Shown here piece by piece: positions 4,901 through 56,362 of a stretch of 64,000 nt of DNA. The stretch's first letter is position 1; each line of letters begins with the position of its first letter. Source of the stretch: a virus; IMG/VR virus record IMGVR_UViG_3300036768_001501, positions 27,514 through 91,513 of that record; one strand, written 5' to 3'. The notes under the pieces were generated by a model that saw nothing but the letters and a program-made list of their open reading frames with translations, searched no databases and was not told where the DNA came from. The position numbers and the translations under genes were made by a program.

Positions 4901-7900
4901 TCGTCTGATGTTGTCTTTAAGAAGATTTATCAAGATGTCATGTATGGCAGGTTCGGCAGTGAAGAGCTTTCCCAAAAGGTTCGTGGAGTTATGTCATCTG
5001 AATGGCACCGTGTGCGCACTGCGCATGATCCATTCGAGCATGCAAGGAAACACACTGGGGCCGATATTGTTGGTGACGAATTGAAGGATGCATATATCAA
5101 GCAACGGTCATTGCATGCAATGACTCAGGATATATTCGACATCCTTCCTGGCCCAAGCCCGTACAAGTACTATGGAGTGCGTGCACCTCTATTTGTGAGT
5201 GCTGAGCCGTACGAAGAGCAAGCAAAGATTGCTCTAGTGACTCGGGCCAAGATGAAATATTTGCCAGCTTTCAAGGATAAGAATTTTATATCCGGCATTG
5301 CCCGCTTGTACGAGATTTTCGGTGGCGTAAATCCGGCAAAGCTGATTGAAAAGGCAGAAAGCGGCAATGCGATCGCTGCGCTTGAGGCCAAGATGCTCTT
5401 GCCGAAGAAGGGCGAGGATTGGTTGCAGCACCTTGGCAAACTTATTCTTTCCCATCGCGTTGGAACATCGTTGGATATATTCGGTCGCAACATCAATGAA
5501 GCCATTCGGCGCCAACGCGAGGAGGCGCGTGCGATGCGCCGACGCATGCGCATGATGAAGAAGATTGAACAGGAAGCCAGGCGCAATGATCCATTCGCAG
5601 ATAAAAAGCTAGAGGCTGCTCTAGAGGCAGAAGAGCCGTTGAAGCGTGTTTTCTCGACAATGTATGGGCGCGCTGGCGTTAAGCTTCAAGAAAAGCAGCT
5701 AGAAAGACTTGTTGACCTGACCCTTGGTAGCGATTTCTGGGCTGCGCTACGTTACCAAGACGCGCTGGAAGTTCAGAAGAAACCAGAGCGTTTTGTTATG
5801 ACCATGATGGAATTGCTCGGGTTTCCCAGCGCCTCCGTTGTTGGCATGGGTAAGCTGCCTTCGTACGAGCAGCTTGTTGAGAGCTTGGCCAAGCATGGTG
5901 ATGCTTTCGTTTCTAATGCAATCGGGATTAGCAGAGATGTTGAGCGCGAGCTTCAAATGCTTGGTCTCGGTAATATTATTGCAAATGAGGTCTCTAAGGC
6001 TTCCGGCACGGAAGAGGCGGCTAAGAAGGATCGAAGCCGCAAGAAGGAAGTTGGCGCTGCGGAACTTACGCCGTCTGAGAGTGATGCCAGCAAGATTAAG
6101 AGAGCTCTGCGCAACAAGGGTACAAAGCTTAGTAAAAAGACTGCAAACATTCCGCTCACTGCCCAAGAGCTTATCGAGATGGCAGCTAATCTTGGTAAGG
6201 GGCGGCGGTCTATCCCTGAAGGCGTAGATATTGAGTCTGCATTTGAACAAAGGAAAAAGAATATCGCTGAGTTTGCGTCCTTGCTTGGTATTGATCCTAA
6301 GTCCCAAGCCGGTCAGAAGCGCTTGAAGGGCTGGGAGGAGTACCTTGAGAAGCTGAAGGAATCTGGCAACATATCTCAGCTAGTATTTCCGAACGTCGCT
6401 GAATGGCTTTTAGCAAGCGGTGTACGCGGAAGGCCGACGCCAGAAGTGGAGGAAATGAATCTGCGCATTGCCTCCTGGCTTCATGAGCACGGTCTGCTGG
6501 CTGGTACAAGCAATACGATTCTCAGGTGGCGGAAATTTTTTGAAGAGCAAGGTGGCCAGGTCACCAATGCTATTGCAAGCCAGATGATTAAGCCTAGCAA
6601 GCCAAGCGGCCCGCAGGCGTCTGCTGTATTTACGCCAATGATGGCCGGCGGCATGTATTCTGGAATGCCGAGTGGCGGCATGTCAATGGTTGGCGAAGGT
6701 ACTTATTCGACTGGCCCGACGATGCAGTTTGGGCAATATAGCTTTACTCCGTACGCCGAGTCCGGAAGTCCGCGAGCTATGGCTGCAGGTGGTGGCGGTG
6801 GCAAGGGCGGCGGTGGCAAGGGCGGCGGAAAGAAAGGTGGTGGCTTCTTTGGATTTTTTGGTGGCGGCGGCGGCGATGACGATGGTGGAGACGATGAGGA
6901 AGAAAAGGAGCCACCTAAGAAGCAAAAGCGCGGACGCAAGAAGAAATCGAGTGAAGAAGAGATAGATTGGACTGCTCCGCGTAGCGCGACTGGCGATAAG
7001 ACCATTGATTTTATTGTCGATCGCGTCACCAAGATGGTCAGCGCAATTCGTAAGCCAGAGCTTACGATGCCAGGATCGCAGGAGTCGTTTTTCCGTGAAA
7101 TTGTGATGCCTGCGATCGAGGTGCTGAACGCACTTGGTGTTTCAGGGAAGCCTGTTTCCGGCCCATTGAAAGGTCGTGCTGGCAAGAAGCTGAAGAACCA
7201 GCTCAAGCAGATGGGGATCGATGTCGAGAAGATGAGTGACATCGATTTGGGCATTATTGCCGGCATGCCCAAAGATTTGTTTGATTATCTCAAGTATCTT
7301 TTCAAGACTACGCCAGCAACGCCACGCCAACGGTCTCGTGCCAGCGAGTCGTTGGAGCATATTACCGAGACTGCGATTTTGCAGGGCAAAGTTGCTGGTG
7401 GCGAGGTAGACCTGTACCCGTGGCAAATGCAGACCATCAAGCGCCTTGCGTCTTTGCTTGGCCCAGAGGTTGGGCAATTTGCGTACGGTCTGTTCCAGAT
7501 GGGCAACATGTTCAAGACGCTGACGCAGGCAAGCCAGTTGGCTGCATCGAGCCCGTCGCCATACCTGTACGAAAAGCGCGTTACGACAGGCCCAGCTAAG
7601 CAAACTTATATAAAGGCTCGGCGCGGGAAGGCGATGGCTTCGGCTGCAGATTTGATTGCCAAGGCGGAGTCTCAGGCCGAAGCATTCAGAATGATTTCAG
7701 AAGGTGCGTCACTGCTGCCGCCTAAAGACCTAGCAAAGGCCATAGAAACATACATGAAGACAGGTGATGAGGAGGTCTTCAAGCAGACAGTCGATTCCAT
7801 GTTACGTCGTGAATCGGCTAAGACGCAGTACGAGCAGAAGATTCTACAGAAGCGCAATGTTGTTGATGAGCTTAAGCGAATCGAATTGACCAAAAAGGCT

Positions 7901-45827: not shown

Positions 45828-46287
45828 CGCTGCCTGGCTTAATATATACTACCGTGTTGTCACGGTAGTCAACCACCATGCCAACAGATAGCTGCCGGCC
45901 TTTTACGCGAAAGACTGCCAAGTCTCCAGCTTCTGGAAACTGCGTCGAGAACTGGTGCGTATTGGCCCACATAATTAGTGCCGCACTCGATTGCGTTGGG
46001 GCTGATTCGCCAACCAGCAGCTCAGTCATGCTGCTTGGGGTGAGCAGCTTACTATTAAGCATGGCTGTGAAGAAAAGGGTGAGACGCTCTGAATCTTTAA
46101 TCATGTTGAATACGTGCCCGTCTCCGGCCCACCTGTGTGCCAGCTTGGCATATAGCATGGCGTCTGGAGAATCTTTTGGCAAAGAAAGCACAGAACACAA
46201 CTCGCGCCGAAGCGCTGGCAAGTTCTTGACGTATCTGAAGAATCTTGCCGAATCTTTTGTTAGCTCAAGCACTTCCTCCGGCCTCAT
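45706..46287 (-). CDS. Hypothetical protein with a CHAP-like C-terminal pattern lacking the catalytic His
   Basis: PEAGDLAVF....LSVGMVV versus the CHAP pattern P.PGDIVVF...GHVGIV. Confidence 0.45.
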   Translation of the reverse strand: MRPEEVLELTKDSARFFRYVKNLPALRRELCSVLSLPKDSPDAMLYAKLAHRWAGDGHVFNMIKDSERLTLFFTAMLNSKLLTPSSMTELLVGESAPTQSSAALIMWANTHQFSTQFPEAGDLAVFRVKGRQLSVGMVVDYRDNTVVYIKPGSDGEERANATGLTFIRLGAGKSQGETAATQEAREAVQEGAS

Positions 46288-46455
46288 AGGGCTGTCCTTT
46301 TGTTGTCCCTGGTGGTTGTTTTTCCAGCAACTGCTTTCTTGATGTCCTCAACCAGATTGCGCAGGCTTTGCACTTCCTGGCGCAACTCTTGAAGCTCTTT
46401 AATCAATTCATCTTTGGTCTTTTTGCTGTCCGGCATGCATTCCTCCTTTTATCTG

Positions 46456-47697
46456 TCAGTGCGAATATGTTTGCTGCTTGGCAAAACCGCTTTCGCCAAG
46501 CTCTGAATGACAAGCGCTCAGAGTTTCTACAGAAACAATCGGCCTGGTGCGTGCACGTGGGGCAATGGATGTAGCCAGGGATTCGGCCATCGCCTTGGCG
46601 AGAAAGACAGTTTCTGACGCCGACTTACGAATAGTGAGCAAGACATTCTGCCCGTACGTTCTGCCCTTCGCATGGACGGGACAAAAGCTATCTTTCATTG
46701 TGGTTCCACGCTTAAAAGTAAGCACCTGAACTAGCGGTGCATTGCATACATCGCACGCGCCCTCCAACGCAAGAATCTTTTTCGGCTTTTTGGGGGCGAA
46801 TACAAAGCTCTTGGCGATTGCCGATGCCGATTTGAGCAGGGTTCGTTCGTCTGGCGCAGAAATCTCGGCAATACCACAATCGCCGTCTGGGTCTTGAGCG
46901 TAAATCTGCGGCGCGCCTCCACAAGTAATACATAGGTCGTCGGCTGGCCAATAACTAATAATCGTGCCAACTTTGCGATTCTCTGTATTCATGCCAGAAC
47001 TGGCGGTATATAGGTCATCCGGCTTGGCTGGGATGTTCTTGCAATTATAGACAATGATTCTTGCCTTAAGCTGCTTGCACTTTGTGCAGCGCAGGCTGTT
47101 TTCGGCAGCCATAACGCCGATCTGGGCAAAGAGAGATTGGTACATGCCTGCTCCATGAACCAGGTGGAAAAACAAACCGTGTTTTAGCGCCCTATGCAAT
47201 AATTCCATGATTTCACTCATAGTTTTCTCATCATTCATACTTTCAATAAAAGATACGCCAGTCGGGCATGGCGCAAGACGATCAACTACATGTGGAACGC
47301 TAAAGTCACGGTGGTCTTGTGTCCACGTGAATGTAGATGGCAAAGATATAGAACACGATGGGCATACGTTGCAGATGTATGGGGAAACGAAGTAGTCGAG
47401 ACAGATCTGGCATGTCTTGACCAGGTCCTTAATAGATTTGGCACTCTCTAGGGCTTCCCTAGCTGCCATTATAACCGGTTTTATCGCCTTGGCGGAGAAA
47501 TTAATTCCCACAATGGCAATCGTATGTTGGTTGCAATAATCCCACACGTCGGGTATTAATGCGGGACAACCTACATTGTGAGAAAAAACAGTGTTGTTGA
47601 GTTTCCGATCGTGCAGAAAAGTTCCGCACGTTTCCTCCGCGCGATTTCGGTCGAAACCGCAGCGACATTCGATTGTTGGTAACATTGGGTAGATCAT
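46456..47697 (-). CDS. Multi-zinc-finger hypothetical protein
   Basis: Several CxxC pairs; upstream TTGCCA-N16-TATAGT-N7-ATG. Confidence 0.7.
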   Translation of the reverse strand: MIYPMLPTIECRCGFDRNRAEETCGTFLHDRKLNNTVFSHNVGCPALIPDVWDYCNQHTIAIVGINFSAKAIKPVIMAAREALESAKSIKDLVKTCQICLDYFVSPYICNVCPSCSISLPSTFTWTQDHRDFSVPHVVDRLAPCPTGVSFIESMNDEKTMSEIMELLHRALKHGLFFHLVHGAGMYQSLFAQIGVMAAENSLRCTKCKQLKARIIVYNCKNIPAKPDDLYTASSGMNTENRKVGTIISYWPADDLCITCGGAPQIYAQDPDGDCGIAEISAPDERTLLKSASAIAKSFVFAPKKPKKILALEGACDVCNAPLVQVLTFKRGTTMKDSFCPVHAKGRTYGQNVLLTIRKSASETVFLAKAMAESLATSIAPRARTRPIVSVETLSACHSELGESGFAKQQTYSH

Positions 47698-47735
47698 GAC
47701 CCCAACTATATCACGGAAAGACCGGTTGGCAAGCC

Positions 47736-48008
47736 ATGAAGAAGCTATCTAGTTATATTAGATTATCCGACATCATTACAAATCAGGAAGAAGCCAACAT
47801 GGTCCTTCGCGGAGTCCGGCTGAATAAGCTATGGATATATGACGTTACCGGTAGGCGGGTTGACTATGTCGAGGCTCGGGCTAGGCTTGGCAATGATCCG
47901 AATCTTATTGTTCCAGGGGCGTCTTTGCGCGGATTTCGGGTCAAGAAAACCAAAATTAAGTATAAAAGCCCGAAATCCAGGGGCAGTATACGCGGCAGGA
48001 CTGGATAA
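47736..48008 (+). CDS. Small basic hypothetical protein
   Basis: 90-aa ORF divergent from 47697; its 3' end overlaps the first 41-bp repeat. Confidence 0.45.
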   Translation: MKKLSSYIRLSDIITNQEEANMVLRGVRLNKLWIYDVTGRRVDYVEARARLGNDPNLIVPGASLRGFRVKKTKIKYKSPKSRGSIRGRTG

Positions 48009-48079
48009 CCTTGAAATATTGTGGCAGTATACGCGCCAAGGCAAAGGGGCAGCGAAATTCCAGAGCAGTATACGCGGCA
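47971..48079 (+). repeat. Three direct repeats, core GCAGTATACGCG, exact 41-bp period (iteron/operator-like)
   Basis: Cores start at 47983, 48024 and 48065; each is preceded by GAAAT. Confidence 0.85.
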
Positions 48080-48161
48080 AGAAATATGATCTAAGAAGAT
48101 AGGCAGAGACCTGGATGCTTAGATATTATACCCCGGGCAACTTGACAGTGTGCTTTTGTAA

Positions 48162-48205
48162 AATGTCGGTCTTTTCGTCCACGATCAGAAAATTCCAGCT
48201 ATGCT
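48162..48205 (+). promoter_or_regulatory. Putative promoter/operator of the RT operon
   Basis: AATGTCGGTCTTTTCG (48162-48177) is identical to 54610-54625, followed by AAAATTC and a -10-like TATGCT (48200-48205). Confidence 0.55.
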
Positions 48206-48211
48206 TTGGTT

Positions 48212-48615
48212 CGCCTTGGCTTTGGTGCCAGAGCCAGCCAAGCGGCGTACGACAAATTGCGCAATTTTGCCGTACGCATGCGCGATAGCGGCGGTATTGT
48301 TACGCGCGATGTACTCGTCGCGGCAACCTGTATGACGTCGGGGGCAGGACCGACTTGCCCCCTCGCGCTACCGTGTACATAACAACATGCTTAGCTGCGG
48401 GTTACACCAGAACCACGCGCGATGTATTCGTCGCGGCAACCTGCGTTCCGTCACCGAGGCGTACTCGCGAAGACTCGGCTCAACTCCGCCACGGCACTTC
48501 GCTTCGCGAAGTGCGCTCCGCTACGTTGGGGCCTCGTCTTCGCTCCGTGCGCTCGCTTCGCGCAGCTAAGCATGCGCGCCCCGGTACGCGGCTAACTGCC
48601 CCGTACCGGGGCAAA
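48212..48615 (+). ncRNA. Structured retron-like ncRNA (msr/msd-like, internally duplicated)
   Basis: Perfect 14-bp inverted repeat 48386-48399 / 48561-48574 encloses two small hairpins and a ~100-nt interrupted hairpin (48455-48555). A 29-bp direct repeat sits at 48302-48330 / 48415-48443. Extra hairpins at 48246-48277, 48341-48361 and 48578-48612. Directly upstream of the RT genes. Confidence 0.75.
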
Positions 48616-48659
48616 ATCTTATATAACGCAACACAACAGAAAGGAGGAACAGTACATAT

Positions 48660-49697
48660 ATGCGAACAATCAATTTTGGGTACTGGAAAGAGGAAAATGG
48701 CCAGCGCGTGTTCGTTACCACAAGCGAGCATGCGCTTGAAGTGCAACATCAAGTAGCAGAGCGGCTGGCACTGATTGCGTACCTGCTACAGCGCTGCGGG
48801 TGCGGAATCGTAAGCGCCGTTAACTTACCAGAGCTTGGCGTGTCGGCGTACCAGATAGCATCAGAAATTGCCGTACGCGCCTGGCGCCTAAGCAAGAAGG
48901 TGGACAAACAAGACATAGTGGTTGCGCACTACAAGATGCATAACATGTACGACCAGCTCGATCTTGCAAGTGTGTACGCTACGTTAGAATTTACGGCTAA
49001 CTATTGCACGTTTGGCATAGGTATCACGAAAGATTCGCACGTTGTCGCGAAGCCGTTCAGCGACCGCAAACGCATGGAGCCATTGTGCCAGTACGTGGAC
49101 ATGCTGTACGGGATATTACGAAGGATGAATGCCAATGATCGTTGGCATGGCATTGCCTCTCAGGGCAATGAGGCTCAGTACATCATGCCGTACGATCCAC
49201 TGCGCGAGCGTTTTGTCGTTGCCGCTGGACTGCCTACGTCTCCGTACATAGCTGGCTTGTATTTTGCGTACAAAGCTTACAGCAACTTAGCGCAGTTCGC
49301 GAACGACGCTATCAATAAATCTGGAATCTTATACAATGCCGTGCACGTGCCTGGCGTGTCTGTACCAAGGAGACTTGGGTACGCGCAACGCGCATGGACG
49401 TGCGGTGACTATGGCAAAACGTACTGGAGCGAAATTTCGCAGATGCATTTCTTTCACTACGGCCAAGAGGCTGTACTGATTCATACGCGCGATAGCTGCT
49501 ACCTGCCGTTCTTCAAAGACAGTACGCTCAACTATAGGGTTAACGGGTACTTATACGGTGATTCGTTCTCGTTCTACGGAAACGAAATCACCGTAGGCAA
49601 TCCAGAAGTACGTGGCGACAATTCGCCTGTGCCAGCGTCTGCACACGTGGAGAAAGCAAAAACAGTGCTACGTACATTTGCAGTGATGGGAGATTAA
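48660..49697 (+). CDS. Catalytically inactive reverse-transcriptase paralogue (pseudo-RT)
   Basis: Colinear with the next ORF: RVFVTTSEHA/RIFVTTSEYA, YKMHNMYDQL/IDIKDCFNSL, AAGLPTSPYIA/GQGPCTSPHFA, FFHYGQEAVLI/YSRYADDILIT, RVNGY/NVCGF, KAKTVLRT/KAARVLKT. Strong SD AAGGAGG; intact ORF. Confidence 0.8.
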   Translation: MRTINFGYWKEENGQRVFVTTSEHALEVQHQVAERLALIAYLLQRCGCGIVSAVNLPELGVSAYQIASEIAVRAWRLSKKVDKQDIVVAHYKMHNMYDQLDLASVYATLEFTANYCTFGIGITKDSHVVAKPFSDRKRMEPLCQYVDMLYGILRRMNANDRWHGIASQGNEAQYIMPYDPLRERFVVAAGLPTSPYIAGLYFAYKAYSNLAQFANDAINKSGILYNAVHVPGVSVPRRLGYAQRAWTCGDYGKTYWSEISQMHFFHYGQEAVLIHTRDSCYLPFFKDSTLNYRVNGYLYGDSFSFYGNEITVGNPEVRGDNSPVPASAHVEKAKTVLRTFAVMGD

Positions 49698-49698
49698 T

Positions 49699-50796
49699 AT
49701 GCAGGATGTTGGGCACTGGACAACGATTCCCGTCGGTCGCAAGCAGCGCCGCATCTTTGTTACGACATCGGAGTACGCGCGCAAGATACAGCGCGATTTA
49801 GCATGGCGCTTGGCCGCATGGTCGTACTTCTTCAGGCACTGTTCGTGTGGCTTGTTCCGGCCTATCACCGCATATGCGCCAAAAAGCAGCGTACACGATC
49901 ACGTGCGCTTGCATATGGAATGCGCAGCGCGATGGCTCGATGCAGTCACGTACAAGATAGACATAAAGGATTGCTTCAATTCCCTGATGCCTATTGCTTT
50001 CAGGTCGTACGTGCGAGCTGTATACAGAACATTGCTCGGGTACGACTACGGACTTTCTATAAGCCAGGCAAGCGTAGTCGCACTTGGAAGTAGAAGCCTG
50101 TACGGCGGCGACAAGCTGCGTGATGCAATCTGGAGCACAATCATGAACAAGCACCATAGATTCTGGCTCAATTTCGAGTCCATCGTGAACAAGTACGGCG
50201 AGATCGAGAACAGAAAGGTTCAGGCGCTCTTCCCGTACTGCGATGACAAGCGCTTACATGTTGTTGGACAAGGCCCATGTACATCTCCGCACTTTGCTAA
50301 TATAATGCTGCTATCACTCGATTGTACCCTCATGCACAAGATACTTGACCACAAATATTCTGCCGAAGGATCCGTACATGAGATTGGGCTGTTCGGGCAA
50401 TGCGCCCACAAAAAGGCACAATTGCCTTTTGCGTACTCGCGGTACGCAGACGACATTTTAATCACCACGAGTATTGCAACGGACAAGGTGCTTGAAGCTA
50501 TCGAGTTTGCGCTTGCGCTTCACGGCCTGAAAGCCAAGTACGTCGAGCAGTACAAGCAGACAGACCGCATTAACGTCTGCGGGTTTACGTGGACGGTTGG
50601 CGAAGAAGACATCCGCCCGACGCGGCGCGTACGTAGGAGGCTACGCGCGTTGCGTCATATTCATAAAAAGTACAATGACACGAAAGGAGGGCAATTGCAA
50701 TGCTTTGAGCAATGGGCAGATGTGTACAGCGAGTCAAGGCTAGGCAGCTCGAAAGCTGCTCGGGTGCTAAAGACAATTATTGCAGCAAATGCGTAA
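49699..50796 (+). CDS. Retron-type reverse transcriptase
   Basis: Motif A KIDIKDCFNS, motif B QGPCTSPHFAN, motif C YSRYADD. Region-X-like AYAPKSSVHDHVRLH and region-Y-like VCG (cf. VTG). 365 aa with no maturase or nuclease domain. Confidence 0.9.
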   Translation: MQDVGHWTTIPVGRKQRRIFVTTSEYARKIQRDLAWRLAAWSYFFRHCSCGLFRPITAYAPKSSVHDHVRLHMECAARWLDAVTYKIDIKDCFNSLMPIAFRSYVRAVYRTLLGYDYGLSISQASVVALGSRSLYGGDKLRDAIWSTIMNKHHRFWLNFESIVNKYGEIENRKVQALFPYCDDKRLHVVGQGPCTSPHFANIMLLSLDCTLMHKILDHKYSAEGSVHEIGLFGQCAHKKAQLPFAYSRYADDILITTSIATDKVLEAIEFALALHGLKAKYVEQYKQTDRINVCGFTWTVGEEDIRPTRRVRRRLRALRHIHKKYNDTKGGQLQCFEQWADVYSESRLGSSKAARVLKTIIAANA

Positions 50797-50815
50797 GATG
50801 GAGGATACGTACGCT

Positions 50816-51949
50816 ATGCATGACCCAATGAAGGTTCTTCTTGAAGAAGCACGCAGCGGCGCGCGCGTACTGCTCGCTGGCCCACCGGCTACGGGCAAAA
50901 CTGCGCGCATTCGCGCGATTGCGAAAGAACTCGGGTACGAGTTCATTTGTACGCCGCTCCATTTGCAGGAGCGCGTTGACTTAAGCGGCGCAATTGTACC
51001 TGCTGGCGATGTTGCACGACAATTGCCGCTAGAGCTGATTGCGCGCTTGCGCAACGCCAAAAAGCCGGTACTCTGGCTGATCGACGACCTAGGAAAAGCG
51101 CCGATCGATATACAAGGCGCCCTCAAGTCGCTGATCACGCGCGCCGGCGAAGGCATGTCGCTGCCTGAACCCGTACTCGTGTGGGGCGCGACAAACCGAC
51201 CAGAAGATGCGGCTGGCGTACGCGGCCTCGATGAAGCGCTGCGAAGCGAATATGATGCCGCGTACGAAATCCAAGCGCCTATTGCGGTCGTACAAGGCGG
51301 CCAGGTGGTGGACGTTAAAATTCCCGTCCCGACCGAGCGCGGTACCGTGCCACTTGCGCCGTGGGAAGATGAAGTGGAAAACTGGTGCATGTGGGCACTA
51401 GATTATGCACGCCAGCTCGAAACAACCGATCCGCAGCGTGCGTACTGGGCCGCGCAAGTCGTGGCATTCCACCGTGTAACACGCGGCGAATGGTTGTACC
51501 GCTGGCATCACGTGCAGAATCCCGCAGAACGGTTCCCTGATTTCCGCTCGTGGCATGCTGTTATGAAGCTTCCGGAGCCGCTGCAGAAGTACGAGCCGAT
51601 TGCTGCCCGCATTGGCCATCCGGCAACTGCTGCATTCATTTCGGTACGCGAAGACATCACCAGCATGCCAACGCTAGACGAAATTCTCGCATCGCCGCAA
51701 ACAGCGCCTGTTCCAGGCGAAGGAAGTACTGCGGCAATGTACTTGCTCGCAACGCTAATTGCGATTTGGGCATCTCTCGATAACTTGCGTCACTTGATTC
51801 CGTACGTTGAGCGATTGCCGCGACAATTTGCTGCGCTTGCTGCCAAAGGCATCGCGCGCAAGTTTAAGGATAACGTTGACAAGCTTGTTGCGGTCGAACG
51901 ATGGAACAAGTTTGTTGACCGCAACAGCGACCTGTTCGACATCGAGTAG
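50816..51949 (+). CDS. MoxR/dynein-related AAA+ ATPase
   Basis: Walker A GPPATGKT, Walker B WLIDD, sensor GATNR; SD GGAGGA at 50800. Confidence 0.88.
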   Translation: MHDPMKVLLEEARSGARVLLAGPPATGKTARIRAIAKELGYEFICTPLHLQERVDLSGAIVPAGDVARQLPLELIARLRNAKKPVLWLIDDLGKAPIDIQGALKSLITRAGEGMSLPEPVLVWGATNRPEDAAGVRGLDEALRSEYDAAYEIQAPIAVVQGGQVVDVKIPVPTERGTVPLAPWEDEVENWCMWALDYARQLETTDPQRAYWAAQVVAFHRVTRGEWLYRWHHVQNPAERFPDFRSWHAVMKLPEPLQKYEPIAARIGHPATAAFISVREDITSMPTLDEILASPQTAPVPGEGSTAAMYLLATLIAIWASLDNLRHLIPYVERLPRQFAALAAKGIARKFKDNVDKLVAVERWNKFVDRNSDLFDIE

Positions 51950-51977
51950 CGTACAAACCGTTAGGGAGGTTATCTAT

Positions 51978-52727
51978 ATGGCACTAGAAGCAAAAAACTT
52001 CGTACTCGCGCGACCGCACGTTACCGTGTGGAACCCGATGGTCACCGACCACGAGCTAACGCGCGTCATCACGGAAACCACAACGATCCCGAACCAAGAG
52101 CGCGTACGCGCAATGCGCTCGTTGCGACAAATCGATTCGCACAAAAAGCTCATTGCGCTGCGTACGGAAGCCTTCACCAAATTTAACACGCGCACGTGGC
52201 CATGCGAATTCCGTGGGTTCCGCATCGCCAACGTAGTGGTTGTACCAGAATTGCGCGACATCATTGCTGACATACAACCGCGATTCCAAACAGCGCTCGA
52301 TGCGTTCTTGCAGGAGTACGAGGGCGCACGCCGACGTGGCGTCATCTCGCCAATCTGGCCGAGCGCAAACGCAGTACGCGACAAATTCTATTGCGAAGCG
52401 CAATTCTTGCCGATTCCGGCTGATAGGGAATGGCAAACGTGGTTCATGAACATGCGCGCAATGCATCTGGAGTACTTCCGGCAGCGCATTCTAGAGGCGC
52501 TTGATGATGCCGTACGCCGCTTGACGGTCAAAGGCGGCAAGCGCAAGACGGTTGCGCGCGTACTTGCAAGCGCGCTTAAGATGGCGGCGGATATTGAGCT
52601 ACCGCCAGAGCTAAGCAAGCTCGTACAAGAGCTAGATACCGTGGCCGACGCGGCCAAGAGCGCACCAGAACAGCAGCTATCTAAGATTGACATGCTCGCG
52701 GCACGAGTACGTGCAATCGCAGGATAA
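51978..52727 (+). CDS. DUF3150-like protein
   Basis: VTVW...TD, TWP...GFR, F...Y...WPS...VRDKF...LPIP pattern; SD GGAGGT; usual neighbour of phage AAA/vWA genes. Confidence 0.6.
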   Translation: MALEAKNFVLARPHVTVWNPMVTDHELTRVITETTTIPNQERVRAMRSLRQIDSHKKLIALRTEAFTKFNTRTWPCEFRGFRIANVVVVPELRDIIADIQPRFQTALDAFLQEYEGARRRGVISPIWPSANAVRDKFYCEAQFLPIPADREWQTWFMNMRAMHLEYFRQRILEALDDAVRRLTVKGGKRKTVARVLASALKMAADIELPPELSKLVQELDTVADAAKSAPEQQLSKIDMLAARVRAIAG

Positions 52728-52751
52728 CATTCTAACTAGTTAGGGGAAATC

Positions 52752-54476
52752 ATGCGTAAGCCAAACAAGCAAGAGTCGCGCCGCTTAGAGCGCGTTCTCT
52801 TCAAGCTATTATCGCATCCACGTACGGCAGCGATCGTTGGTTCTGTCGCTGGCGAATTACGTACGCGTCCATCCAATAAAGCCGATGGTTCGCGTGCATT
52901 CGAGTACTATGTCGTTGATGTCGGTATGGACAAGTTTATCGCTTCCGCTGACGAGAATTTTCGTATCGTACTCGGCTCGGAGTTCCTCCAGAAGGCTAGC
53001 ATCGAAGAATTGAAGTACGTGCTCGTGCACGAATGCACGCACATTGCAATGGGTCACTTGTGGCGTCTCTGGAAACATGCTCAAATTGATGAGCGCGCCT
53101 TCTTTATCGCAGTTGATTATGAAGTTTACCGGGTACTCAAGCCGCTGCATGACCAAGGTGTGATTCGCGAACCGGACGGAACGTGCGTACCGAAAGCGCT
53201 CGAAACTCCAGATTGGGCCTGGAATTTGTCCGCTGAAGAAATCTGGCGACGCTTACGCAAGCAAGCGCAAACGCCAAGCCCGCTGCAAGTACTTGCGCAT
53301 TCGAGCGGCCAAAGCAGAGACGAAAAGCAAGGCTTTGGCGATCACGAGAATGAAGATTCTGAAGTACCCGTAGACGAAGCGGGCGAGTACGGGCAACACG
53401 ATTGCGATAGCGAGGGCAATGTTTCTAAGGGTGACCCGCGTCGCAATCGTACCAGTACGCCAGGCGGCAGGACGCCAAGCGAACAAGCCAAGAGCGGCAA
53501 AGGCAATAACAACAATGAATGCGACGACGTTGCAAGTACGCCAGGTGGAAAAGACCCACAAAAGCAATCAAACCAAGCCGCAGATGGGTACGGAGATGAT
53601 GGCAACGGCGAAGAAGACGGCGACAATCAAAGTGGCGGCGCGTCCGAAGACTTGCTTGACGAGCTTGCGAAAATTGCACGCAGGCTTGGCCTGCAGCCGT
53701 GTACGTCACAGCAGAGCGCTGAAAATATGCGCCAGTTTGTTGAAGGCGCATTACAGCGCCATGCAATCTTAATCAAGATCGCAGAAGATAAGTCAGGCCA
53801 AGCGCAAGGGCCAAACGGCGGCAACGTACAAGATTTCTTGCAGCTCAATGTACGTGCGCCGGTTCATAACTGGCAAGATGAGCTGCGCGAATTCGTACAG
53901 ACGAACATTATTCGCCGCCCAGACTGGATGCGCCCAGCTAAGCAAACATGGGCAACGGGCGTGTACACGCCACGGCGTCAACGCTACGTACCAGGCACGC
54001 TTGTGATTTGCCGTGATACTTCCGGTTCTATGCAAGTGAAAGAGTTCGATCATATTGCAAGCGAGCTGAAAGATATTTTCGATATAGCTGCATGCGAAAA
54101 CATACAGCTATTGGCAATCGACGGCGACACGCGCGTTACGCAGACATTTATTATCGATAGCGCAAGCGTACTTGAGCAATGGCTGCGTGCACCAAAAGGA
54201 CGTGGCGGCACTGAATACGACCAGTTCATGGAGTACGTAAAGCAATTGCGTAACGGCGACGTTGAAGAATCCGCCATGCTGGAGGGCGATATATGCGGTA
54301 TGATTCTTTGTACCGACTTGGAAGTGTCACAACGCACAATCGATGCGCTTGAACCGCCGGAAGACATTCCGCTGATCTTCATGTACGTCGGTCACCGGAA
54401 AGAAATTCCAGTGGACGTTACGGCAAAAGGCAAGCTCATTAATGTTACTGCAGCGGTACGCGCTAAGAATGCTTAG
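52752..54476 (+). CDS. DUF2201-type metallopeptidase (HExxH) + vWA domain protein
   Basis: LVHECTH, an acidic/Gly-rich linker, MIDAS DTSGS, GRGGT and CTD. Confidence 0.88.
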   Translation: MRKPNKQESRRLERVLFKLLSHPRTAAIVGSVAGELRTRPSNKADGSRAFEYYVVDVGMDKFIASADENFRIVLGSEFLQKASIEELKYVLVHECTHIAMGHLWRLWKHAQIDERAFFIAVDYEVYRVLKPLHDQGVIREPDGTCVPKALETPDWAWNLSAEEIWRRLRKQAQTPSPLQVLAHSSGQSRDEKQGFGDHENEDSEVPVDEAGEYGQHDCDSEGNVSKGDPRRNRTSTPGGRTPSEQAKSGKGNNNNECDDVASTPGGKDPQKQSNQAADGYGDDGNGEEDGDNQSGGASEDLLDELAKIARRLGLQPCTSQQSAENMRQFVEGALQRHAILIKIAEDKSGQAQGPNGGNVQDFLQLNVRAPVHNWQDELREFVQTNIIRRPDWMRPAKQTWATGVYTPRRQRYVPGTLVICRDTSGSMQVKEFDHIASELKDIFDIAACENIQLLAIDGDTRVTQTFIIDSASVLEQWLRAPKGRGGTEYDQFMEYVKQLRNGDVEESAMLEGDICGMILCTDLEVSQRTIDALEPPEDIPLIFMYVGHRKEIPVDVTAKGKLINVTAAVRAKNA

Positions 54477-54478
54477 CG

Positions 54479-54654
54479 CAGTATACATATAAGCCCACGT
54501 ACAGCCGAAACGACAGAACAGTATACATATATTGCGCAGATACGCGTACGGGTACAGGCGCTCCGCGCCTAAAAGTACCCAGGGAGGGCTGGAAATGACG
54601 CGGTGCGTTAATGTCGGTCTTTTCGAGTTTTGACAAAATTCGCGCTGCTACCTT
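54479..54654 (+). promoter_or_regulatory. Regulatory region: two CAGTATACATATA boxes (40 bp apart), the shared 16-mer and a putative extended -10
   Basis: Boxes at 54479-54491 and 54519-54531; AATGTCGGTCTTTTCG at 54610-54625; TGcTACCTT at 54646-54654. Confidence 0.6.
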
Positions 54655-56062: not shown

Positions 56063-56362
56063 ATGCGTACATATATCCTCAACGCCCTCCCCGTAGTGGG
56101 CGAGGGTACGCTACGAGTCACGCGCGCCACGTTACGTGAGCTGCGCGAAGCGTACGCCCAAGGCGCAACGTCGCTCATTGGGCATGAGGCCACAGCCGCA
56201 GTACTCGGCGTGGCCTACAACCGCGCAATGCTGGACACGTTTCAAGTAGGGGACGTGTACTACATTGCGCGACTCAAAGTCCGCCTGCCGGCTGACGTAC
56301 GCGACTTGCCGGCTATCGGCGAAAGCGACCTGGACGTGTACCGCGTCGAGGTCATCGCGTAA
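56063..56362 (+). CDS. DUF1874 (STIV B116/YddF) family protein, putative AcrIII-1-type cA4 ring nuclease
   Basis: 99 aa with YILNA, SLIGHEATA, YNR, GD and RLP motifs in family order; SD GGAGG. Confidence 0.8.
   Translation: MRTYILNALPVVGEGTLRVTRATLRELREAYAQGATSLIGHEATAAVLGVAYNRAMLDTFQVGDVYYIARLKVRLPADVRDLPAIGESDLDVYRVEVIA

Follow-up and report, generated by a model that had tools for sequence, protein, structure and literature searches.

Tandem retron-like modules in the leader of a reverse transcriptase operon of a virus from thermal microbial mats

We analyzed a 64,000-nucleotide stretch of DNA (hereafter, the window), the right-hand 64 kb of a 91.5-kb virus genome record, in which a putative structured RNA (ncRNA) locus stands directly upstream of two reverse transcriptase (RT) genes and on the same strand. 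We propose that the leader of this phage RT operon is a copy-number-variable array of retron modules, all read by one protein, probably the active RT, a reading to which we assign a probability of roughly 0.55. As we reconstruct it, the array holds two modules in this phage (one short, one full) and four in ~88–90% identical relatives (three short, one full). Each module would open with a terminal inverted repeat containing TAGCKGCG, followed directly by an unpaired G at the position of the retron branching G, and would continue through an invariant 7-bp hairpin, a GCAAC(C) tail, CGTC and a hairpin at the template position to a 3′ arm.

In the mechanism that we envisage, a single protein would read all hairpin copies sequence-specifically, the likeliest reader being the active retron-type RT acting through its region-Y/arginine-rich C-terminus. 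The last module would be primed to give a classical msDNA, the short modules would either yield cDNAs of their own or load extra RT on the transcript, and copy number would shift by recombination between the repeated hairpins.

Anatomy of the two units

At the center of the array is a 29-mer that a reading of the sequence alone (hereafter, the sequence-only reading) had reported as occurring twice with a single mismatch in a loop. Pattern searches and folds bore this out: the two copies (48302–48330 and 48415–48443) are 28/29 identical, and their sole difference, C at 48314 vs T at 48427, lies in the 4-nt loop of a 7-bp hairpin whose stems pair 48305–48311 with 48316–48322 in copy 1 and 48418–48424 with 48429–48435 in copy 2. 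They are the only copies in the window at up to three mismatches, a tolerance at which 100 shuffles gave a chance expectation of 0 matches, and a search allowing up to five substitutions found no third copy in the whole 91.5-kb genome. The leader contains the following features.

48151–48183 (+): conserved leader or promoter-like element, containing the 16-mer 48162–48177
48245–48277 (+): hairpin 0, upstream of the array (fold; inverted repeat I11)
48279–48377 (+): unit 1, short retron-like module (MFE and centroid folds)
48302–48330 (+): 29-mer copy 1; 7-bp hairpin with loop TACT, then the GCAACCTG tail
48340–48362 (+): hairpin B, at the msd (template) position of unit 1; 23 nt, 9 bp, −16.8 kcal/mol, z −4.05, 0/200 shuffles
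48386–48574 (+): unit 2, full msr-msd-like module (inverted repeat I4 and fold)
48415–48443 (+): 29-mer copy 2; identical 7-bp hairpin with loop TATT, then the GCAACCTG tail
48449–48560 (+): long hairpin of unit 2, presumed msd template; −51.7 kcal/mol, z −3.4
48578–48612 (+): GC-rich hairpin between the array and the first gene (inverted repeat I3, fold); it has no U-run and is not called a terminator

Both units present their motifs in the same order (TAGCKGCGG, hairpin, GCAACCTG, CGTC, second hairpin, closing arm), and the elements that the sequence-only reading had assigned to them were all recovered. The 9-mer that it gave as TAGC(G/T)GCGG ahead of both copies lies 5′ of each 29-mer, as TAGCGGCGG at 48286–48294 in unit 1 and TAGCTGCGG at 48392–48400 in unit 2, and has only one further copy in the whole genome; in the folds, the first unpaired G occupies the equivalent place within this shared 9-mer in both units (48294 and 48400). 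The CGTC and hairpin claimed to follow both copies are likewise present, with CGTC ending at 48339 in unit 1 and 48452 in unit 2, just ahead of the next hairpin. The short hairpin foreseen for unit 1 lies at 48340–48362 and has 9 bp, the ~100-nt hairpin foreseen for unit 2 spans 48449–48560, and the closing arms, given as TCGCGC(AGC)TA, are as described (TCGCGCTA at 48363–48370, and 48561–48574).

Apart from the 29-mer and these short motifs, the units cannot be aligned with each other, which argues that selection or very local conversion keeps the 29-mer and that a recent duplication does not by itself explain it. The hairpin stem of the 29-mer is invariant in all copies, and hence gives no covariation. 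Retron RTs reportedly recognize their RNA at the last msr-type hairpin, and it is this element that is duplicated here. Since stem and tail are identical in all copies and the flanks have diverged beyond alignment, we infer a single protein that reads every copy. In a second sequencing run, one contig matches the window exactly over 48188–48380, which rules out an assembly artefact at unit 1 and its junctions.

Unit 1 consists of a closing stem (48279–48293/48364–48377), the unpaired G at 48294, the recognition hairpin, CGTC and the 23-nt hairpin. Its closing stem is imperfect, with 13 bp that include 3 G-U pairs and with 2 interruptions, and the unit folds marginally better than its shuffles (z = −1.9; 7 of 200 fold as well). 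All described msds are, to our knowledge, much longer than this 23-nt template hairpin. Because the short units keep the priming context, CGTC and the closing arm, they may each make a cDNA of 25–35 nt. Unit 2 lies between the arms of a perfect 14-bp terminal inverted repeat (48386–48399/48561–48574; I4, 100% complementary), within which are an unpaired G at 48400/48401, a small hairpin at 48400–48414, the recognition hairpin with its GCAACCTG tail, CGTC and the long hairpin, and none of 200 shuffles folds as well as this unit (z −5.8). The long hairpin is the presumed template for a cDNA of ~105–110 nt. The minus strand folds equally well as the plus strand, and the strand of the array is assigned from context. 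A search of Rfam 15, which covers few retron types, gave no match at E ≤ 1 over 46000–52000.

Upstream of the array, the element at 48151–48183 shows 0 differences over 33 nt in the relatives, where both of its flanks are replaced. Its 16-mer (48162–48177) recurs in the leader of the next operon, near 54610, and three 41-nt-spaced repeats with a CAGTATACGCG core stand ahead of the leader at 47971–48082; together, these repeats and the element, including its occurrence near 54610, probably represent a shared promoter or operator. TGCCGTACG, which comprises bases of the 3′ arm of hairpin 0, also stands ahead of unit 1 of the relatives, as read from a loose end at 48303 in run X2.

Copy number in relatives and traces in CRISPR spacers

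The stretch is present in six sequencing runs (X1–X6) from microbial-mat and hot-spring metagenomes of four studies, with no RNA run containing it among the sequencing runs found. Three contigs from hot-spring metagenomes (3 runs, 2 studies) are ~88–90% identical to the window and cover both RT genes colinearly; between the element at 48151–48183 and the first gene they have 256–259 more bases than the window, with the same joints in all three. The layout in these relatives, reconstructed from tables that list aligned pieces of the contigs and not from the contig sequence, has four copies. The first piece is an exact copy of 48302–48331 (30/30) with unalignable flanks of 87 and 69 nt; the second and third comprise 69 unaligned bases and then a stretch resembling 48268–48442, in which two further hairpin copies occur along with a longer hairpin B; and the fourth and fifth comprise 21 bases that start a variant of hairpin B and then the sequence beginning at 48350, which includes the fourth copy and the long hairpin. 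The four hairpin copies are spaced ~133, 125 and 113 nt apart, corresponding to three short units and one long unit. Indels in the leader of the relatives are of 1, 2 and 3 nt, which argues against coding.

The 5′ half of unit 1 in the window matches unit 2 of the relatives and its 3′ half matches their unit 3, suggesting that unit 1 is a fusion of these two units by deletion between hairpin copies, and such a deletion would explain the imperfect closing stem of unit 1. Hairpin B of the relatives' unit 3 carries G48344A and C48358T, which are compensatory if the unseen last four bases are Cs. The long hairpin has five substitutions in its 3′ arm in 4 of 4 runs, the 3′ arm being the part compared. 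Run X2 contains both the two-unit form of the window and a form whose hairpin copy has the upstream flank of the relatives.

A scan of metagenomes with the hairpin pattern returned 34 loci, none of which encodes the RT and 32 of which are chance matches in GC-rich coding DNA. One metagenome contig from the habitats of the relatives (L013:1–14499; also L012) is a CRISPR array throughout, with ~196 repeats of 37 nt, and three of its spacers carry the hairpin (2882–2918, 5449–5483 and 5521–5557). Two of these spacers end inside the hairpin, with different upstream flanks and with loops TACT vs CACT, and the flank of one spacer matches the sequence ahead of copy 1 in a relative's contig. The two flanks and two loops are independent evidence for more than one hairpin copy, indicating that related elements contain at least two distinct copies, not necessarily from one genome. 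Beyond these three spacers, we found no further spacer overlaps that rebuild more of the relative's ncRNA.

In runs X2 and X3, contigs join phage sequence that ends at 48437, and at 50358 within the RT gene, directly to an L013-type repeat. All five spacers from the hairpin and RT locus (L013, X2, X3) have one orientation, and their crRNAs would be complementary to the plus-strand transcript if the repeat ends in an 8-nt type I/III-like handle; a literature search on the sequence of this CRISPR repeat found no paper. Another spacer, L013:2294–2330, matches the phage genome outside the window (G000:C1:2824–2854) at 27 of 31 bases, suggesting that spacers of the array are directed at other parts of this phage lineage's genome as well. 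Within the window, a 99-aa ORF at 56063–56362 (+) has a weak Pfam match to the STIV_B116-like family (E 0.0011, 19.5 bits vs a cut-off of 26), which we take to be the AcrIII-1 ring-nuclease family. This weak match and the orientation of the spacers hint at a host with type III CRISPR.

The reverse transcriptase and its YADD-less paralogue

The two genes that follow the array are listed here.

48660–49697 (+): RT paralogue without the catalytic YADD, 345 aa (BLASTP, hhalign)
49699–50796 (+): retron-type reverse transcriptase with intact YADD, 365 aa (PADLOC, NCBIfam, motif alignment)

By its best HMM matches and its motifs the second gene appears to be retron-type, with scores far below curated cut-offs. 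Its best PADLOC match is to retron RT_III-A (2.3e-14) and its best NCBIfam match to retron_St85_RT (8e-12, 45 bits vs a curated cut-off of 235 bits), and its library matches to retron RTs cover mainly residues 243–326; a PADLOC match to Drt3a is marginal (7.5e-5) and covers one short stretch. The AYSRYADD motif is identical to that of genomic retron RTs and is invariant in the RT family. The region X column (NAXXH) reads HVRLH, with only the H kept, and the region Y triplet (VTG) reads VCG, or CTG in the homologue P0003, with the G kept; the H of NAXXH and the G of VTG are the most conserved residues in retron RTs (PMC7736814). In an alignment with genomic retron RTs, an arginine-rich helix comes after the VTG-type column.

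The first gene was linked to the RT, as a full-length paralogue, by BLASTP (E 3e-9 over 216 aa) and hhalign (94% probability, residues 4–319 vs 9–322), and the two proteins share only ~22–26% identity. The paralogue does not keep YADD, is without the arginine-rich helix that comes after the VTG-type motif in the RT, and had no match in Pfam, PADLOC, PHROG or NCBIfam. Homologues that are 90% and 68% identical to it are likewise intact, with 345 aa, and both RT genes are intact in relatives at 68–90% identity. AlphaFold models of the two proteins were of low confidence and unusable (mean pLDDT 49 and 32).

The RT family is very rare, with 3 proteins at E < 1e-30 among 1.8 billion representative proteins. 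Neither the RT itself, nor an RT profile, nor either of two hairpin patterns picked up anything related in viral contigs, GenBank phages gave no DNA or protein match, and in the genome collection only distant ordinary retron RTs matched. The region 3′ of the RT (50780–54476, +) encodes an AAA ATPase (PHROG 1297), then an ORF without a match in any library, and a protein with DUF2201 metallopeptidase-like and VWA domains (PHROG 1314). These genes may act as effectors for the RT system, or they may form a phage module unrelated to it.

Comparison with known systems and readings of the array

Retron ncRNAs are characterized by hybridized terminal repeats, 1–3 msr hairpins, a long msd stem-loop and a conserved branching G (Mestre et al. 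2020, PMC7736814). The locus resembles them in having an ncRNA directly upstream of the RT on the same strand, with a terminal inverted repeat, an unpaired G, 1–2 msr-type hairpins and a long hairpin, and in an RT that has YADD, the H of NAXXH, the G of VTG and an arginine-rich C-terminal helix. It departs from retrons in its 2–4 tandem modules in place of one, in the very short template hairpin of the extra modules, in the YADD-less RT paralogue that separates the ncRNA from the RT, and in its setting, the 91.5-kb genome of a virus from thermal microbial mats. Unit 2 has a long stable stem-loop at the msd position, as retrons do, whereas the 9-bp hairpin of unit 1 falls short of this. In engineered ‘multitrons’, a retron RT uses several tandem msr-msd units on one transcript (10.1101/2023.07.17.549397). 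The proposed array is like these in placing msr-msd units in tandem on a single transcript, with a putative priming site in every unit, and in its single RT; multitrons, however, are synthetic, Eco1-based and built with full-length msds, whereas the units here are natural, unequal and known from sequence alone. DRT3 is reported to combine a Class 1 with a Class 2 RT activity, both from UG/Abi-type enzymes (PMC13174585). The locus is similar in having two adjacent RT-fold genes and a structured ncRNA and differs in that the first paralogue has no YADD and the second scores best as retron-type with PADLOC, and on these grounds we do not assign it to DRT3.

A competing explanation, which we regard as possible although on balance doubtful, is that the short units only bind protein, be it the RT or an RT/paralogue complex, and that the last unit alone is reverse-transcribed; such binding could fix the stoichiometry, assemble an oligomer or let the operon autoregulate its translation. 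Its strengths are that only the hairpin and tail are invariant while hairpin B and the closing arms vary in sequence and length between units and between relatives, that the closing stem of unit 1 is weak, and that a 23-nt template would be unusually short. However, unit 1 keeps the TAGCKGCG-G context, CGTC and the closing 3′ arm, all needless for pure binding sites, and hairpin B seems to be maintained by compensatory change. That repeat-mediated duplication and deletion left the extra units behind as neutral by-products, with no function of their own, strikes us as improbable. A copy number of 2 vs 4 between ~88–90% identical phages fits such turnover, as does a unit 1 that looks like a composite of two units of the relatives and has an imperfect closing stem, but the identity of the 29-mer (28/29 in the window, 30/30 against the relative) amid unalignable flanks needs selection or very local gene conversion, and the extra units persist in all variants seen, in four runs.

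The sequence-only reading had called the two units retron-like and had matched them to the two RT paralogues, with one unit docking the YADD-less protein and the other the active RT as one option, and two msDNAs of different length from one transcript as the other. This second option may still hold, in the form of several cDNAs. That the units are retron-like is supported, given the msr-msd anatomy of both units, the duplicated hairpin and the RT with its YADD-less paralogue; the 2:2 pairing, which agrees with the two units and two paralogues of the window, we consider very unlikely. When copy number is set against the RT genes, the relatives keep both genes with four hairpin copies, so that the extra units persist and the numerical match is not supported. 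Moreover, one hairpin per paralogue is difficult to reconcile with copies identical in stem and 3′ tail and proteins that are only 22–26% identical, and the paralogue is without the arginine-rich segment after the VTG-type motif. Hardly any credence attaches, finally, to a process like that of DRT2, in which concatemeric cDNA with a continuous open reading frame is made, here by template jumping between the 29-mers. Direct repeats do flank a 113-nt interval, but the spacing of copies varies from ~113 to 133 nt among the relatives' copies, the RT appears to be retron-type and not of the UG/Abi class, and six tandem copies of 48302–48414 have stops in all six frames, which excludes such a concatemer as a coding device.

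The reading that we prefer thus remains an array of modules read by one protein, in which the last module would give an msDNA of ~105–110 nt and the short ones may give cDNAs of ~25–35 nt. More tentatively, and at less than even odds, we suggest that the locus is a natural retron array, in which one transcript with 2–4 priming modules, a single RT and a dead-RT partner would produce several distinct msDNAs, including species of ~25–35 nt, and in which the number of modules would evolve quickly by recombination between the invariant hairpins. We know of no described msDNA as short as ~25–35 nt. Our literature search found no description of natural tandem retron ncRNA units; there was one ncRNA per RT, and tandem arrays were engineered only.

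If the proposed array is real, retron RTs would serve several substrates in cis in nature, their recognition element would be reducible to a hairpin of ~20 nt and a tail of 5–6 nt, and the lower size limit of the msd would be measurable on a natural example. The lineage of this RT, extremely rare, associated with thermophiles and accompanied by a catalytically dead paralogue, might yield retron parts that are compact or thermostable. For the phage itself, the possible roles of such a retron include the exclusion of rival phages, anti-defence and replication.
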